Origin: a virus
Taxonomy: Duplodnaviria > Caudoviricetes
IMG/VR virus record: IMGVR_UViG_3300032007_000014
Length of the DNA stretch: 64,000 nucleotides
Strand: one strand, 5' to 3'
Positions 5,501-48,207 of the stretch are shown here, in pieces. The first letter of the stretch is position 1; every line of letters begins with the position of its first letter. The notes under the pieces were generated by a model. That model was not told the origin of the DNA. It saw nothing but the letters and a program-made list of their open reading frames with translations, and ran no database searches. Position numbers and translations under genes: made by a program.

Positions 5501-5598
5501 TGTGTCGACCTCCTGTGATTGAGTTATTTAAGTCATAATGTAGTTCTTCGACATACAAAATTACAAGGATGGATGGGATTAATTTCCCATCCATCCTC

Positions 5599-5624
5599 GT
5601 GATATATGTCCAATCACTTCATGA
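5599..5624 (-). promoter_or_regulatory. Early-promoter-like motif TCA-N15-TATATCAC
   Basis: One of four copies with identical spacing; core resembles the phiKZ early consensus TATATTAC. Confidence 0.55.
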
Positions 5625-8600
5625 GACTTTCATATTCTTCTCACAAAGATCTTTGTACTTCTTCACATCGATCGTGTCATCCTCGGTGAGATACCGATGC
5701 ATACCAATCGATTGTTCTGAAGTGATTTTCACTGCATTGTCCAATCCATTTCCCTGACCACCAAGGAGTGTGCAGATAGGATGCAGTTTCATGAGTTCTG
5801 GAACTAACGCCTGCTCTTTGATGAAAAGCAGGTAGAGTTGGTCACCCATTGGGTTGTTTGCGATCGCTACTCGCTGTACCGTTTCCAGTACTGGACTATA
5901 TCATCAACTCATCGCTGAGTTGGAGCACTTCAACATCGCTTGATGCTTACGTTCACAATGAACTAGTCTCTGAACCTTCTTTAAGCGGCTACGTGAGTCA
6001 TCTTAAAGCTTGGCTGCTGATTACCATACGCAATGTTCCAGATATTGCGGTTAGGCTCCCAGCAATTCACTTTCTTTTCGACATGGGTCACCCCATGAAG
6101 CGACAGTGTTGCAACTATCGAAATCAGCATTTGGCCTTTATACCTGTTCCTTATAAACAGGAGTAGACTATACTTTCACCAACAATGTGAGGGTACCTTC
6201 ATCACACCATAGGTATTCCGTCTCTAGTCGTTGAACCTTAACAACTTGTTGTCAATCATGACACCGTTTGGCTACCGGTTCCACACTTGCAGTGGACACT
6301 TGTTGTTCTTGGCTGCTGATCACGCCATTGTTAATAGATGTGAGAACCTACTCGATTTGAATAAGCTTTTATTTCATCTCACGATCCATCCCGAGACATT
6401 GTTTCAGTCTCACGACACCACTAGGGTTTCTCGGGCTTTAGGGTTTTCCAGCAATTTACGGAAATTCACACACATCCTTCCGGATATATGGGCCCAAGAC
6501 CTTTCGGTCTAAGCAGAAATGCTGTATGGTGTTAATCCAATCGTGTCATCATTCGGATCTGTCTTCACATGAACTGCGAAGAAGAGCTGAACAGCGCCGT
6601 GGCGCAACGTCGGATTCCTTCCACACTTTTGTTACGTGAATTACGACGAACAATTCACTCAATGTTTCCATTGTCTTGATCATGTTTCCATCTCATTGAG
6701 ATGTCAGGTACTTCCATCACCATATCGTCTTGTGATGTACTCCTCGTTAGAGGATGATCGATGTCGCTGTATCCAGTTACCTGGTCTACTCGCTAGCACG
6801 TTTCCCGTTTCCGACGAACCACTTAGCACCACTTTCGTGGCTTTTATTTCAGCTTATGGCATCTTGTTCATTCTTTCAGTCTTTCGACAACATTCACGCT
6901 TATCATTACTGATTACGTTGTAGTTGAACAAGCTTTGGGGATTTCATGCATTTCACCTGATGCTGCAGCACAATGTCACCATTGTACCGTCCTGGTCGAT
7001 TAAAGATATTCGACTTCTCCTAAGAATTCCTTTGGAATGTGTCTCGCATTCTTTGGATACTTGATGGAATATTCCCTCGCAATTCTGTAATGACATCCGT
7101 CAAGGATATCTTTGATATTGTGAGGTTCACATCCAACAATCTTTGCAATGACAGAATGTTTTATATTCTTTTCAAGCAATTGGCATGCTTTATGAACCAT
7201 TTCATCCGTCATAGCACTATGTTTCAATCCAGTCTTCAAAGCGTGATCCATATTCTCCCAGTTCCACATCCACTCGAGATTAGATGGATGGTTATTCATC
7301 TTATTCCCGTCTATGTGGTTGACTGTATCTTTGTTTTCTGGATTAGGAACAAATGCCATTGCAATTACTCTGTGTGTCTTCGTATACCACACTGTTTTAT
7401 CGTCTCTCGTGATGACAACTTCCGGATAACCATCCGGTGATATATCTTGGTGGAGATTCTGCATCCACCAAGTTGCAAATATGTTACCATCTTCAACTGC
7501 GTAATAATTACTACAGCCAAGAAACGCTAAGTGTTTGTACTGAAGACGCACTTCAGTTCTCCAAGGAGCATTGAAACACCAACCCATTAATTTCTTCTTA
7601 GCAATTTGAACAGGTTTCTTCTCTTCAAACGTGCTAAGATACAAATACGGACCGTCTTTGTACGTAACACCTGTAAGAAGATTCTGTACCACACCATTTG
7701 AGTAAACTCTTATGTGCGGCATGCCGAGATCATCTAGGGTTGTCATTCTCAGTGGTTTGTAGTTGTCATCCATAACTTCCTCCATGACAGGAGTTTACGT
7801 CATAGATAACAACCTGTCTCATTCGTTTAATCAGTTAAGAAGCAACGGAATTCCTTTCCAGGGACTTTCCGCCATTAAGATCTTGATGCACTCATGGATT
7901 GTTTCATCATACGTCACCAGTGCCTTGTTGTAAAGGTACAGTGCCTCATCATTACTCAGCTTTTTGCGTCGTTTCATGAGGTTGATCAGTTCCAGTTTGT
8001 GGTTGGCTACGACCATCCTCCAAGGAAGATGTACTTCGTCAGCCATGTGGTCACCCACAATAGGAACAATGACAGCTCGTGCGCTGAAATGCATACGAGC
8101 AGCCAAGATACACTTACGTATGAATCCTGTCTTTCCGATCAATTTTCCTTTGGTCACGGCATTGACATACTCCAGATAACTCTGATAGGTCATCCACACA
8201 TGTTGTTCAAGATAGTTCTTGTTACTGGTGGGATTGTGGCGATAGTTGTATATCGCATTACCCAACTCAATGCAAGTCTTGAGGATGTGTGTGGATGCAT
8301 CATCGTTGTACGTCATGGTTCCACTCTTGGTCAGAATGTGCAAACTCTGATTCAAGATCGGAATGTGACGCATGAAGATGCAATGTCGATATGTCTTCAC
8401 GAACTCTTCGATGTATTCGTTCTTCTTGGCTTTTGCCCCTCTGTTCAAGGAGAGACAGAACCTGATGATATCATCGAAGTTCTTGTAGAAGTAGTCTGGA
8501 CCTTGTCCTAGTACTCCTGCATAAGGTTCTGGGAGTTCGCTGTCAACATCCAACAGAAGGTCGATGACCTTCTTCTTCCTGGATACGCAACCCATCCATT

Positions 8601-9045
8601 TTCCGAGAACTCGATAAGCTTCCGGATGAAGGAGAGGTGGCATAAACTCAGGAATTTCCAACCAAGCAAGATATCGGATCTCATTGGCAAATGCTGTCCT
8701 TACCTCTGTCTTACATTTCGGACAGATGGTGTGAAGTGCAAAGTTTCCTTTGAGATTACCACAATCGCAACTCGCTATGAAGTTGAGATTGTTGTCACTC
8801 TCTTGGAATAAGATACGCTTCATCAACTCTGTGGAAGAGTCGTTGATTGTACCTGTTTCATCACATCCACATGGGACCACTTGTGCATTGGGATCATTTC
8901 GGAATACCTCATCGAAATCGATGAGTTTCAGCTTGGTGATGGATTTGGTTGTCTTGGGTTGACAGAAGACTTTTCTTTGTTCCGCGAATATGGGATTCCA
9001 ATAATCCGCTTCGCGTTTCGACTTATAGACAAAGTCGTACCACAC
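5619..9045 (-). CDS. rpoC: Non-virion RNA polymerase beta' N-terminal/catalytic subunit, spliced from 4 exons: 9045-7838, 6623-6512, 6134-6117, 5846-5619 (predicted 521 aa)
   Basis: Exon 1 has a Zn ribbon (CDCG..CPKC) and GKTGFIRKCILAARMHFSARAVIVP. Joining the exons gives ...GIPLLL-GRNPTLRHGAVQLF...TPYSISA-PNADFD-GDQLYL..., the RpoC NRxPTL and NADFDGD motifs in one frame. Confidence 0.92.
5847..6116 (-). mobile_element. Group I intron 3 of the RNAP beta' gene (270 nt, no ORF), inserted within DFD/GD
   Basis: 5' exon ends in U, intron ends in G; P AAUUGCUGGGA, Q AAUCAGCAG, R GUUCAGAGACUA, S GAUAUAGUCC; P1 CGAU|AGU/ACUGUCG with U.G at the splice site; P10 CACU/GGUG. Confidence 0.92.
6117..6134 (-). 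CDS. 18-nt micro-exon CCA AAT GCT GAT TTC GAT = PNADFD (RNAP active-site motif)
   Basis: Read directly; preceded by the terminal G of intron 2 and ends in U before intron 3; restores NADFDGD in frame. Confidence 0.9.
6135..6511 (-). mobile_element. Group I intron 2 of the RNAP beta' gene (377 nt, no ORF)
   Basis: Starts UAG after exon U, ends ...UAAAGG; P AAAUUGCUGGAAA, Q GAUCAGCAGCC, R GUUCAACGACUAGA, S AAAGUAUAGUCU; P1 hairpin with GAAA loop. Confidence 0.9.
6512..6623 (-). CDS. 112-nt exon 2 of RNAP beta' (GRNPTLRHGAVQLFFAVHVKTDPNDDTIGLTPYSISA)
   Basis: Manual translation matches the RpoC segment from NRxPTL to just before NADFDGD. Confidence 0.9.
6624..7837 (-). mobile_element. Group I intron 1 of the RNAP beta' gene (1214 nt) carrying an HNH homing endonuclease ORF near its 5' end
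   Basis: Exon ends CU, intron starts UAA and ends GUG; guide CCA-G-GA just after the HNH stop can pair with both exons; putative P3 UCAGGU/ACCUGA and P7 GAUCA/UGAUC. Confidence 0.82.
7000..7785 (-). CDS. Intron-encoded HNH homing endonuclease (I-HmuI/HNH_3-like); start may be the second Met at 7773
   Basis: HRVIAMAFVPNPENKDTVNHIDGNKMNNHPSNLEW motif, C-terminal HTH-like segment, located inside intron 1. Confidence 0.88.
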   Translation of the reverse strand: MEEVMDDNYKPLRMTTLDDLGMPHIRVYSNGVVQNLLTGVTYKDGPYLYLSTFEEKKPVQIAKKKLMGWCFNAPWRTEVRLQYKHLAFLGCSNYYAVEDGNIFATWWMQNLHQDISPDGYPEVVITRDDKTVWYTKTHRVIAMAFVPNPENKDTVNHIDGNKMNNHPSNLEWMWNWENMDHALKTGLKHSAMTDEMVHKACQLLEKNIKHSVIAKIVGCEPHNIKDILDGCHYRIAREYSIKYPKNARHIPKEFLGEVEYL

Positions 9046-9152: not shown

Positions 9153-10742
9153 TCAGTAGATGAACGGATTCGTGGCATCCCAGCCACCGACATTGCCCTG
9201 GCCGACGCCGAAGCCCAGACTGCTGAGAGCATTGTAGTTGTACGCCGAGGCGAGGCCCGTGATGTCGTACACCTGGTTGCCGTTCAGGTAGTCGTAGGTC
9301 AGATGCAGCGTCTTGCCGATCGCCTGAGCGATGGCGGAGAAGACGTTCGGATCGATGACCGCTTTGAACGTCATGTACAGGGATTCGGTTCCCTGCGGAT
9401 AATGACGTTTCACGTTGGCCAGCGTCACGCGCGGATCCATCTGGATCTGCAGGAAACTGGTCAGTTCCGAAGTGCGCGGAATGTCGACCGCGAGACTCAG
9501 GAAGTCGATCGACCGAGAGTCGACAGTCTCCTGGTTGGACTTGGTCACGACGCCGTCGAAGGAGCGGTAGCACTGGATGAACGGACGAACGTTCGGGCCA
9601 CCGATCGGGGTCTTCGTGAACGTGGACATGGCCGCCAGGAATCCGGCGCCGCTGTTGGCGATGAGGTTGTTGATCGCACCGATCTTGGCGCGGCCTTCCT
9701 GAATGTCGATCGCGAGAAGCGGTTTCATCGAGGTCAGGTACTGAGTGAAGAACTCATTACGCTGCGCGATGTCCTTGGCGAACCAGGGCTGGCCGTTCTC
9801 GTCGGTGATCAGGCGGCCGACGTTCGGAGAGTTCTTGGCGAAGCTGGAGAACTGTGCCATCCAGCCCTGCTTTTCGATGAATCCTTCGATCGCCAGACTG
9901 ATGCCGGTCGCGAGGATCGCGGGCGACTTGAAGTCGGACACGATGTCGGTGATCACGGTCATCGGGAGATACTTGACACCACCGAGAACCGGCTGCAGGC
10001 CGTTCATGCTGACATTGGGAGCCAGGATGAAGGTCGTGTATCCGGTGACGGCGAGAATCGGAGTCTTCTCGACTTCGGGACGGCCATAGCCGAGCTGATT
10101 CGGTTTCTGGCGGGTCGTGTAGAGAATCAGACCGATGTCATCGCGAGCGGGGATGTCGTGCGGATTCCGCGCGGAGATGAACTGACGGACGGCGTTGATG
10201 TCGGCGGACGCGACGAAGTCGCCACCGAAAGCATCGACCGTGACATTCGCCAGATTGGGATCGACCTGCGCATTGATTTCGTTGCGGATGTGGGTCGCCA
10301 TCTGGTTGGCGCGGGAATACATGCCGGGACGGACGACGATGCACTGATCGATCGCGATGCTGGCGTTGATCAGTTTCATGCGCTGATCGATGTCCTTGCG
10401 CATGGCGGCGACGGGGAGATCACCGGTGTTCTGATAGGAGGAACTGAAGATGAGCGCGATGCCGATCCGATTGTACGAGATCACGCAGGCCTCATAGTTC
10501 GTTCCATTGATGCGTTCGAAGTGCGCATCGAAGCCGGCTTTGACCAGCAGTTCCTTCACGGTGTCGAGATACTTCTGGCCTTCGGCATCCAGGTTGGACG
10601 GAGTGGCCAGACTGCCCAGCAGATCGAAGATGTTCTTCGCGCTGCTCGGCTGCGCCGCGGTCTCGGTGTTGGTCGGGTTGGGGTTGCTTCCTGCTTCGCT
10701 GGCGTTGCCACGATGCATGGAAATGGTGGATTCGTTTGCCAT
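9153..10742 (-). CDS. chmA: Chimallin (ChmA/PhuN)-like phage nucleus shell protein
   Basis: ~529 aa from ATG 10742 (SD AAGGAGG); immediately upstream of nvRNAP beta' N as for phiKZ gp54/gp55; extended N- and C-terminal arms; GC-rich codons like the capsid gene; early-promoter-like motif upstream. Call rests on synteny and architecture. Confidence 0.75.
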   Translation of the reverse strand: MANESTISMHRGNASEAGSNPNPTNTETAAQPSSAKNIFDLLGSLATPSNLDAEGQKYLDTVKELLVKAGFDAHFERINGTNYEACVISYNRIGIALIFSSSYQNTGDLPVAAMRKDIDQRMKLINASIAIDQCIVVRPGMYSRANQMATHIRNEINAQVDPNLANVTVDAFGGDFVASADINAVRQFISARNPHDIPARDDIGLILYTTRQKPNQLGYGRPEVEKTPILAVTGYTTFILAPNVSMNGLQPVLGGVKYLPMTVITDIVSDFKSPAILATGISLAIEGFIEKQGWMAQFSSFAKNSPNVGRLITDENGQPWFAKDIAQRNEFFTQYLTSMKPLLAIDIQEGRAKIGAINNLIANSGAGFLAAMSTFTKTPIGGPNVRPFIQCYRSFDGVVTKSNQETVDSRSIDFLSLAVDIPRTSELTSFLQIQMDPRVTLANVKRHYPQGTESLYMTFKAVIDPNVFSAIAQAIGKTLHLTYDYLNGNQVYDITGLASAYNYNALSSLGFGVGQGNVGGWDATNPFIY

Positions 10743-10848
10743 GATTTGCCTCCTTAAGGTTGGGTTGTTGGCATTCTTTGTGTACACGACGTCTTTTGAA
10801 GTTAGTTCCTAACGACTGGCTAGGTCGTCAGGTTTTGGCTTCAGTTCC

Positions 10849-40658: not shown

Positions 40659-42747
40659 CTATAAGATAGCCGATGATGGATTCAGCTTTTCCTTGACAAG
40701 TCTATCCATTTCCTCATAGGTTGGGAGATTGAAATACTCACTTCCACACAAAGAAGCATTTTCTCTTGTATAGAGTGAGTGAAGGAAGAATTTCTCAACA
40801 TCGAACGTATCGAATTTACGTTCAGGTACAAGTCCTTCGTGAACACTTGCCATTTCTTCTGGATAGAAGAAACTCGGCATCACTTGATTGACATCAATTG
40901 GACCTACTCTCTCAGAATTGTCGATTTGAATCACGTAGAACTCTTTGGTTTCTCGTGCACAGTTTAAAGTTCTGAGAAGATTAGGATACATTGCATTTGG
41001 ATCATATTACCATCCTGTTGTCAGGATGTCTGCTCTTTCGGAATTAACCTACTCCCTGTCGGGATGATCTCTGAACGTCCATCTCTTGCAAGATGTTTCG
41101 CTGCTGATTGTTCATTGTCACAGTCCTTAGCACCACATAGTGGCTTTTATTGCAGCATAGACCGATCTATCTGTTCTTTCTGTCTTTCGACGGCATTCAC
41201 AGTTATCATTACTGATTCTGTTGTAGCCAAATAGATCATAGAACTTTCCAGCAATTAAGCAGATTCTTCGACTCATGATTACTCATGAGAAGTCCCCAAT
41301 GTGTCGAGGAGACGTCGATGTCGCACACGAACTTGTGCACATTACTGACAGCATCACTTTCCTTCAGGATCGGAACACCAGTGTTCATCGTGTTTGATGG
41401 ATCTAATACAGCACCACCTTTGTTGTTGATATAAATATCCCAAGGTGATTCCATGGATTCTCCAATAGATGCTGGTATCTTATCCTGTGGATCGAGATAC
41501 TCGTAGAATGTGTTCTTCAATTGGATGGTTTGTTTTGCAAAGTCCTCAAGATTACTGACACCAATCAACTGGATCATGTTGTAGATGTCTCTGTTCTTGA
41601 GATTCATGACATGCAGAATTGCAACGTCAACGATGTTGTACACAGTGTATGCAACTTGTTCACGAGTCTGCATTTCATAATGGCCTTTGTTGGAACCGAA
41701 TTCGAGTTTACCTGCACCAATCTCCTTCGTTCCAATATCATCCAATTTGTAAGAAGGTTCTCTTCCTTTCGCTTTGCGAAGTCTTCCATACAATGCCATC
41801 GCATCGATGTACCTTGTATAGTCAGTACAATGGAACCAATCCCACCGATCTGTGATATGGTCTCCTGGTTTACCATTGTCTTTCACATACTTGGTAACAC
41901 GATACTTCTGTGGTATGTCTTTGCTACAGAAGACATCGGTTGGTTGTTCTCCTCTGAACACAATGCGTTCCAGAAGGTAAGGAATATCGTAACCCATGTT
42001 CCAGATGACGCAGAAGTCTGGTCTATGATCGTGGATCCTATCGAAGATCCATTTGATCAAACTGATCTCCTCATCGAATATCATGTAAGTAGGGTCGATC
42101 CTATTCTTCTGATACAGCGCAGCGGCATTGGATTTCAGAGAAGCAATGAACTTCTCTTCAACCTTATGCCACATCTTATCCACTGCACCGATTGTGTTGT
42201 TTTGGAAGAACTCTTTCAAGATACCGACATATGTCTTGCCAGATCCATCGATGTAGGTGATCAGGATGATCTGGTTATTACCAGTAACATCCGTTTCAAT
42301 ATCGAGTGATCCGACGTTGTAATACGTCGGCATTCTTCCACCATTTTGTTTCTTGAATGCATGTTTGATACGAACACCGATATCAATATCCGCACCATAG
42401 ACATAAGGATTCGATAGGATTTTCCGTAGGTTCACGAATCCTTGTTGTCTCCATGACATCCTTGATGTACCGAATGGATCATCAATTGCTCTCTGGAGAG
42501 TTTGTGCAATCCTGTTATATCTCGTCTTATAACAGATACAATCCTTCTTGTTTGCGTATTCACGCTTCGCATGATAGATGCGTTTTGAAGGTTCTGTCAC
42601 ATAGACTTGTACTTCAGGATTATCGAAAATGACCATCTCTTGCTCATTGGTTTCACAGTCTTTGATGAATCCAACATAAGCATCATTATCATTATCGATT
42701 CTGACATACTCTCCATGAATCAAACATCGTCTGTCTTTTGGAATCAT
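40659..42747 (-). CDS. polB: Family B DNA polymerase, exonuclease/N-terminal half of the split phiKZ-type polymerase; 2 exons 42747-41307 and 40993-40659 (predicted 591 aa)
   Basis: Exo motifs LDIET, WNMGYDIPY, SYKLD, YNIVD; KGGAV; the spliced junction gives DIDVSSMYPN (motif A, DxxSxYP). Confidence 0.88.
40994..41306 (-). mobile_element. Group I intron (313 nt, no ORF) in DNA polymerase motif A
   Basis: P1 UCCU|CGA/UUGGGGA with U.G; P10 ACAUUG/CAAUGU; P AAUUGCUGGAAA, Q AAUCAGCAGCG, R GUUCAGAGAUCA, S AAUAUGAUCC; terminal G. Confidence 0.92.
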
Positions 42748-42864
42748 GTGCCATCCTCTTGGTTGTTGTTCATTATACATAACTATCGTCAGCTCGAATA
42801 ATTTATAATAAGAAGATAAGTGGTGTGGAGACGAACCCCACACCACTTATCTGCGTGTCATAGA

Positions 42865-48133: not shown

Positions 48134-48207
48134 TGGCAATCCCGCCAGGATTCGAACCTGGACTAATTGGACCAAAACCAATTGTGCTACCGTTACACAA
48201 CGGGATT
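48134..48207 (-). tRNA. tRNA-Gln(UUG)
   Basis: Cloverleaf: AAUCCCG/CGGGAUU acceptor, AUUGG-UUUUGGU-CCAAU anticodon arm, UUCGAAU T-loop, encoded CCA. Confidence 0.93.

Follow-up and report, generated by a model that had tools for sequence, protein, structure and literature searches.

Gene model and identity of the interrupted polymerase

The DNA examined here is a 64,000-nucleotide (nt) window, the whole stretch that was analysed, of the virus record IMGVR_UViG_3300032007_000014, which in full measures 238 kb at an estimated completeness of about 90%. The record comes from an uncultured, nucleus-forming, phiKZ-like (chimallin-type) jumbo phage of the cattle gut or rumen. The subject of this analysis is a minus-strand gene of the non-virion RNA polymerase (nvRNAP), which encodes the N-terminal half of the beta-prime-like catalytic subunit. 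Three introns divide it into four exons, and its NADFDGD metal-binding loop can be read only after the exons are joined. The features of the locus, including the open reading frame (ORF) carried by one intron, are given below in the direction of transcription.

7838..9045, minus strand: exon 1, with a phrog_2987 match, tblastn homologues and RNA contig X3 record 20
6624..7837, minus strand: intron 1, 1214 nt, 3' end ...AAAAGUG, carrying an HNH gene; supported by an RNA joint and a homologue in relative L012
7000..7785, minus strand: HNH endonuclease ORF of 261 aa inside intron 1 (PF13392, phrog_59)
7775..7780, minus strand: putative internal guide sequence of intron 1, GGAAGU, from a pairing scan
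6512..6623, minus strand: exon 2, 112 nt, (L)GRNPTLRHGAVQLFFAVHVKTDPNDDTIGLTPYSISA, from translation, gapless alignment and RNA contig X3 record 20
6135..6511, minus strand: intron 2, 377 nt, ORF-less, after SISA; RF00028 45.9 bits
6117..6134, minus strand: micro-exon, 18 nt, CCAAATGCTGATTTCGAT, encoding PNADFD; from sequence, RNA contigs and relatives
5847..6116, minus strand: intron 3, 270 nt, ORF-less, after NADFD; RF00028 67.1 bits
6101..6107, minus strand: internal guide sequence of intron 3, ACUGUCG, from covariance-model alignment and pairing scan
5619..5846, minus strand: exon 4, GDQLYLLFIKE..., from the ORF list, alignment and RNA contigs of four runs
5553..5596, minus strand: GC-rich hairpin of 12 bp and, behind it, a U-rich run, from sequence

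Exon 1 opens with a GTG start codon at 9045, 7 nt downstream of an AGGAGG (9057-9052), and closes with ...CCG TTG CTT CT, while exon 4 ends in a TGA stop at 5621-5619. Fused in frame, the four segments give 1566 nt, or 521 codons, and a product of 521 aa. The hairpin beyond exon 4 is a probable transcription terminator of the polymerase gene, as judged from its form; Rfam matches to miRNA families at the same place are spurious and due to the GC-rich hairpin. The four-exon arrangement had been proposed in a preliminary description of this DNA, and its coordinates hold apart from a 1-nt ambiguity (a T) at the junction of exon 1 and intron 1. There, the U/G rule and the P1 pairing described below set the boundaries at 7838|7837 and 6624|6623. 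The three upstream exons all have U as their last base and the introns all have G (6624, 6135 and 5847), in agreement with what that description had stated for every junction.

The identity of the gene is given by exon 1, which matches phrog_2987 ('RNA polymerase beta subunit') with an E-value of 8.7e-61 and is 25-29% identical over 80-90% of its length to proteins of RTH11, PhiPA3, Goslar and other phages (the phiKZ gp55/PhiPA3 gp54 class) by tblastn. Aligned with its homologues in Xanthomonas phage RTH11 and in PhiPA3 (gp54), the joined product shows zero gaps through PLLLGRNPTL...SISAPNADFDGDQL and thus across all three junctions, the aligned stretches around them reading ...SPWKGIPLLLGRNPTLRHGAVQLFF...SISAPNADFDGDQLYLL... 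without interruption. Of the three catalytic aspartates, the 18-nt exon supplies two and exon 4 the remaining one, as had been described. A scan of the 238-kb genome found no NADFDGD in contiguous DNA and no second copy of the nvRNAP beta-prime N-terminal subunit. An intact copy elsewhere, which the preliminary description had named among the findings that would refute its model, is therefore absent. Its claim that all three introns have to be removed for an active subunit stands; NADFDGD occurs only in the joined reading. DFDGD occurs only once more in the genome, within the GADFDGD of a protein that belongs to a different polymerase family (phrog_2986) and is probably the virion RNA polymerase. 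By our estimate, an in-frame PNADFD would arise by chance between exons 2 and 4, a distance of 665 nt, with a probability of about 3e-6.

The gene order around the polymerase gene was compared as well. A 544-aa gene immediately upstream (9153-10787, minus strand) occupies the position of chimallin; it has no Pfam or PHROG match of its own, and the syntenic 532-aa gene in relatives L007 and L008 carries PF25677 (Chimallin_Phikzvirus). phiKZ and PhiPA3 have the same gene order, with the shell gene beside the polymerase gene; the 544-aa gene is thus a candidate for the shell gene.

Joined transcripts in rumen metatranscriptomes

A check of spliced RNA had been proposed along with the gene model, and contigs from four public rumen metatranscriptome runs, each from a different study (X3, X15, X23 and X24), provide it. 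In these mixed communities the RNA contigs show excision and ligation at the predicted bases. The most informative is a 1064-nt contig of X3 that runs through 8519..7837, 6622..6512, 18 unaligned letters and 5846..5595, with 0 mismatches to the window's exons over 1046 aligned nt. Its joint from 7837 to 6622 omits the 1214 nt of intron 1, again with a 1-nt ambiguity. The same run also contains pieces of introns 1, 2 and 3 at 99-100% identity to the window.

The other three runs supply the letters of the micro-exon. In X15, X23 and X24, exon 2 is linked to position 5846 through CCGAATGCTGACTTCGAT, a strain variant that yields SISA-PNADFD; in reverse complement the joint reads ...TCT GCT CCG AAT GCT GAC TTC GAT, and the changes within the micro-exon are synonymous only. 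X15 and X24 are joined across intron 1 as well, by way of a variant LLLGRNPTL. The joint to exon 4 falls exactly at 5846 in all four runs. Contigs of X15, X23 and X24 give no coverage of intron 3. A direct joint of exon 2 to exon 4, in which the micro-exon would be skipped, was not seen among the contigs of the four runs, an assembled form of data that drops rare forms.

Intron 2 is also represented by what appears to be a circular RNA. A 403-nt contig with a 30-nt overlap of its ends closes into a 373-nt circle that comprises the core of intron 2 (6494..6149) and 27 other letters. It occurs in X3, X15 and X23, with depths in three runs of 60, 242 and 23 against exon depths of about 9, 14 and 4, a 4-17-fold excess, and X24 has a variant circle junction. 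Taken together, these contigs make it very likely that the polymerase gene of the window's phage is spliced in nature.

Classification of the three introns

A 3.9-kb region was searched with the Rfam group I intron model RF00028, for which the curated cut-off is 50 bits. Intron 3 scores above this threshold in a match covering model positions 1-253. In the model alignment its P1 is formed by CGAU|AGU with ACUGUCG and places a U.G pair at the predicted 5' splice site, while a pairing scan offers GUCGAA (intron nt 35-40) as an alternative 6-bp partner. The P1 of intron 2 pairs GCU|U... with ...GGGC in its model alignment and is weaker than the others. That introns 2 and 3 are group I introns, as the preliminary description held, is supported, for intron 2 with a score just under the cut-off; the two have only short core words in common, their longest match being 16 nt.

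Intron 1 is probably also a group I intron, judging by its pairing potential and its homologues. The exon end GCUUCU pairs at 6/6 positions with GGAAGU, located 58 nt into the intron, with a U.G pair at the junction. Outside its ORF, intron 1 shares 70% identity with an intron that L012 carries at this site, and a two-sequence consensus fold of the pair contains 17 compensatory pairs. Over nucleotides 45-160 it matches, at 73% identity, a portion of an L012 intron with an RF00028 score of 47.5 bits. Staphylococcus and Listeria phages, too, have intervening sequences that align with intron 1 and bear group-I-like core words.

The ORF within intron 1 matches PF13392 (HNH_3, E 2e-7) and phrog_59 (HNH endonuclease, E 3.4e-29) and is 69% identical at the nucleotide level to the ORF of the L012 intron. 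The site it would target is empty in L003 and filled by a homologous intron and ORF in L012. A second ATG of the ORF lies at 7773 and is preceded by GGAGGA. The candidate guide sequence GGAAGU overlaps this GGAGGA and the start codons of the HNH gene (7770-7785), so that formation of P1 in the precursor could mask the ribosome-binding site of the HNH gene.

Readings as a group II intron, an intein or a pseudogene were rejected in view of size, missing domain features, the conserved reading frame and the joints seen in RNA. A proposed P10 pairing of the micro-exon's CCAA with intron 2 was dropped, as the third base of the proline codon takes all four values among strains. The window's own three introns contain no tRNA genes.

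Intron crowding among relatives

A protein search with exon 1 retrieved 62 close relatives at 39-88% identity, and exons were mapped in 22 retrieved loci (numbered with the prefix L). Among viral contigs, a single-protein search found 0 relatives and an alignment-based search then gave 15. About 14 of the 62 are full length with an uninterrupted ...SI(S/T)APNADFDGD..., as in the intron-free P0009/L010, which read SITAPNADFDGD continuously. In the remaining 48 or so, the ORF ends within the same stretch of about 50 codons, most often after GRNP (about 22) or TLRHG (about 10), and otherwise after LL(G), SISA, AP, APN(F), NAD or NADFD. At least 12 insertion sites fall within about 50 codons.

The occupancy of these sites differs from relative to relative. 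The closest, L003 (88% identical in amino acids and 79% in exon nucleotides), is without intron 1; it has a SISA intron with a 262-aa ORF, followed by CCCAATGCTGACTTCGAT and then by a start resembling that of intron 3. This NADFD-site intron is 91% identical to intron 3 over its first 59 nt. In L005 only NADFD| is occupied (79.2 bits). L004 is interrupted by introns after GRNP and NADFDG, and L008 by a single intron after TLRHG with an HNH gene. In all, any combination of sites is seen, with loci that are empty or hold one, two or four introns.

This crowding is accompanied by further likely micro-exons, 9-21 nt in length. L012 and L006 carry CCAAATGCT (PNA, 9 nt) directly 3' of an intron that is homologous to the window's intron 2 and lies at the same site, and L012 has an additional GRNP piece of 12-13 nt. 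A 21-nt piece beginning CCTAAT... encodes PNADFDG in L011, and one of 15-16 nt encodes DYDGD in L014 and L017. In L020-L022, a 12-nt piece encoding DFDG lies between introns of 74.7 and 82.2 bits, and in L009 two introns flank TTTGATGGAG (10 nt). Some of the relatives' micro-exons, those of 10, 13 and 16 nt, are not multiples of three. The window-type micro-exon varies across strains by synonymous changes only, with CCA, CCC, CCG or CCT for proline and GAT or GAC for the first aspartate. Its last codon is always GAT, as expected of an exon that is translated and also supplies the U.G pair of intron 3. Judged from these comparisons, the micro-exon is the leftover between two independently occupied homing sites, one after SISA and the other after NADFD.

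The empty intron 1 site of L003 was also compared with the window. Around it (window 7838-7852 and 6609-6623 against L003 at about 6200-6230), 12 of 30 nt differ, all synonymously. Codons 401-410 show 11 differences and no amino acid change, against a mean of about 6 per 10 codons by simple count. Such divergence might stem from evasion of the endonuclease or mark a co-conversion tract.

Proposed mechanism and alternative explanations

The explanation that best accounts for these data, and that is held with high confidence, is a three-intron nvRNAP gene whose transcript is joined into a message with an intact NADFDGD. In this proposal, three mobile introns would have colonised three neighbouring sites in the most conserved stretch of the gene. 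Transcription would yield a precursor of about 3.4 kb in which each intron folds alone, its own guide sequence pairing with the end of the upstream exon and placing a U.G pair at the cleavage site. Removal would then follow the two-step group I reaction, finishing at the terminal G and presumably proceeding without helper proteins. The 18-nt exon would be retained because its last 4-6 bases form the P1 of intron 3, and the ligated 1566-nt message would be translated into a 521-aa subunit with an intact NADFDGD magnesium loop. The HNH endonuclease presumably spreads intron 1 or harms intron-free competitors. The preliminary description had also called for the three splicing events to be ordered; no supporting evidence was found for an order, and each intron has its own guide sequence.

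Several observations weigh against this explanation. The RNA evidence consists of assembled contigs of mixed-community RNA libraries with possible DNA content, the samples mix strains with differing intron sets, and an intron-free allele with identical exons is a possible, if unlikely, source of the joined contig. The 18-letter piece of the X3 contig is known by its length. At the circle junction, 27 letters depart from the ends of the window's intron 2; they resemble a variant 3' tail ...GGUAUGCAAG (...GGUAUAAAGG in the window) joined to a variant 5' hairpin. Exact-pattern DNA scans for the variant intron 2 end with the micro-exon, for the variant intron 2 start and for the micro-exon with the intron 3 start returned nothing. 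Because the variant DNA was not found in those scans, the junction is assigned by analogy only. The window's genome has no second intron 2 copy that might account for the circle. The 373-nt circle is probably the full-length intron 2 circle of a strain variant. As to intron class, the RF00028 match of intron 2 is full-length with an E-value of 1e-9 and lies 4 bits below the cut-off. For intron 1, the same model finds nothing at E<=10, either in the 3.9-kb search or in the 3' 421 nt alone, and its class rests on indirect homology, P1 and the terminal G. RF00028 also finds nothing in the Staphylococcus and Listeria phage sequences aligned with intron 1.

The joined contigs could in principle stem from co-occurring strains with fewer or no introns, either as mRNA or as carried-over DNA, rather than from splicing by the window's own introns. 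The runs do contain strain variants with differing intron sets, including an X15 contig that is interrupted at the TLRHG site, where the window has no intervening sequence. The joined contigs of X15, X23 and X24 differ from the window at several positions, and intron-free alleles are known in the wider family. Against this stands the X3 contig, which is identical to the window's exons in a run that also contains introns 1-3 at 99-100% identity. Since even the nearest sequenced relative differs in 21% of its exon nucleotides, it would be surprising to meet an intron-free twin whose exons are identical. Moreover, the circular intron 2 contig cannot derive from DNA, and if the introns stayed in place, the genome would be left without a catalytic nvRNAP subunit. 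A strain-mixture origin of the joints is thus quite unlikely. A decaying pseudogene, or a set of pieces that act as separate polypeptides without splicing, would explain why gene callers give only truncated ORFs in the window and in about 48 of the 62 relatives. This idea is extremely improbable, given that the exons are conserved and in frame, that the micro-exon varies only synonymously and that joined RNA is present; the 404-aa piece without NADFDGD could not catalyse transcription, and no second copy exists to replace it.

A different question is whether the arrangement has a regulatory function. The preliminary description had suggested that skipping of the micro-exon might generate an in-frame but dead subunit and thereby time the early-to-late switch. 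The 18-nt length and the phase 0 flanking introns would indeed keep the skipped product in frame. No evidence in support of skipping or of such a switch was found, and introns 2 and 3 are dissimilar, unlike the mutually similar introns of phage Twort. Relatives carry every mix of sites, with micro-exons of other lengths, some not divisible by three, which points to accident rather than design. Independent invasions by selfish introns fit such a mix of filled and empty sites better than a designed regulatory device does. This regulatory reading of the micro-exon is speculative and very improbable. Two broader proposals, that the intron trio throttles production of the catalytic subunit after transcription or that the stretch of about 50 codons is an arms-race zone, are together unlikely. 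Under a throttle, the abundant intron 2 circle, if full-length, would mark a side pathway that leaves the exons unligated. With two ribozymes sharing an 18-nt exon, the yield of complete message or occasional skipping may vary with conditions. In an arms race, each filled site would shield the phage from the intron endonucleases of its competitors.

Other intervening sequences and group I candidates

In addition to the three introns of the polymerase gene, the genome contains the following candidates and a tRNA gene.

G000:C1:172260-174444 (L038 2260-4445), outside the window: three group I candidates of 33.8, 31.6 and 23.4 bits, about 1 kb apart
Window 40989-41320, minus strand: group I candidate, 31.8 bits, E 2.6e-7, at the 3' end of ORF 41236-42846
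Genome 7823-8072: a further group I candidate
Window 48137-48207, minus strand: tRNA gene, 61 bits on RF00005

The three candidates at 172260-174444 separate three ORFs whose matches fall on consecutive parts of an NrdD-like anaerobic ribonucleotide reductase (phrog_487), which looks like a second three-intron gene of the same phage. ORF 41236-42846 encodes 536 aa and matches a DNA polymerase (phrog_3011); this gene too is probably split by the group I candidate at its 3' end.

Some loci of the relatives hold tRNA genes (Pro-TGG, Thr-TGT and Leu-TAG) or a second class of intervening sequence.

L011 6927-6999: tRNA gene in an intervening sequence
L012 8848-8921: tRNA gene in an intervening sequence
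L014 6845-6919 and 6923-7007: tRNA genes in an intervening sequence
L017 7600-7674: tRNA gene in an intervening sequence
L004 5350-5989: second-class intervening sequence
L011 4831-5223 and 6612-7148: second-class intervening sequences
L006 6246-6644: second-class intervening sequence
L008 6282-7437: second-class intervening sequence

The tRNA genes sit between a micro-exon and the next exon of the polymerase gene, in intervening sequences left unscored by RF00028. In the second class, the upstream exon ends in GGA or GGG instead of U, GCUCCC is found close to the 5' end and the intervening sequence terminates in ...GUGAACA(N)nG; RF00028 gave no match to any of its members. The junction placed in L011 yields LLG-QNP in place of the conserved GRNP, and this junction or the second class as a whole may be misread.

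Comparison with known systems

The arrangement shows an essential enzyme that functions despite having its metal-binding site on an 18-base exon between two ribozymes. It also adds RNA support from natural samples, which is scarce for the introns of chimallivirus polymerases. In this clade of rumen phages, interruptions within one and the same stretch of 50 codons affect about three quarters of the relatives sequenced, and such crowding leads automated annotation to call a core polymerase subunit truncated or missing. The family may therefore serve as a test bed for the limits of group I intron packing, for endonuclease-mediated competition and for gene calling in jumbo phages.

The closest known counterpart is phiKZ gp55/gp56/gp56.1, where the same gene, in phiKZ beside the nuclear-shell gene and in the window beside a candidate for it, is interrupted inside the same catalytic motif by a group I intron with an HNH ORF. 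The phiKZ precedent cited in the preliminary description is borne out: a group I intron that scores 75.6 bits on RF00028 and bears the gp56 HNH gene interrupts gp55 at APN|ADFDGD. It is the only intron there, and a micro-exon is absent, whereas the window has three introns, at LL|G, SISA| and NADFD|, and an 18-nt exon. A long-read transcriptome of phiKZ found no splicing of the predicted introns under its conditions (PMC10914365), in contrast to the joined RNA contigs of the window. In PhiPA3, gp210 is associated with a group I intron with an HNH endonuclease at the catalytic aspartates of the virion RNAP beta-subunit gene, and the endonuclease has been shown experimentally to act against intron-free competitors (Birkholz et al. 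2024, PMC11620839). PhiPA3 gp210 resembles the window in the insertion of a group I intron at conserved catalytic aspartates of a chimallivirus RNA polymerase gene and in the presence of an intron-borne HNH gene. They differ in that the PhiPA3 intron is single and belongs to another polymerase and subunit, and the function of the window's endonuclease is a presumed one.

More distant systems share single aspects of the arrangement. In the Staphylococcus phage Twort, a protein gene with three self-splicing group I introns is reported to undergo exon skipping (Landthaler and Shub 1999, as summarised in PMC3073962). Twort is a precedent for alternative exon joining by group I ribozymes, with introns that are alike where those of the window are not. 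In organelles, mini-exons of less than about 4 codons between group I or group II introns are said to 'occur regularly' and to be missed by gene finders (MFannot, PMC10352661). Those belong to mitochondrial genes and hold no metal-binding loop of an enzyme, while the present one is in a phage and does; a search of the literature yielded no description of micro-exons between group I introns in a phage. In Bodo saltans virus, several group I introns cluster in the RNA polymerase genes polr2a and polr2b; part of them carry an HNH or GIY-YIG gene, and others are ORF-less (Deeg et al. 2018, PMC5871332). Their splicing was shown by RT-PCR and a role in interference competition was proposed (PMC5871332). 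That virus is a giant virus of a eukaryote in which 'offspring' introns are near-copies of the parent, whereas the introns of the window are unrelated beyond their core. Set beside these systems, the window's polymerase gene is a real and unusually dense case of a known kind of selfish element.

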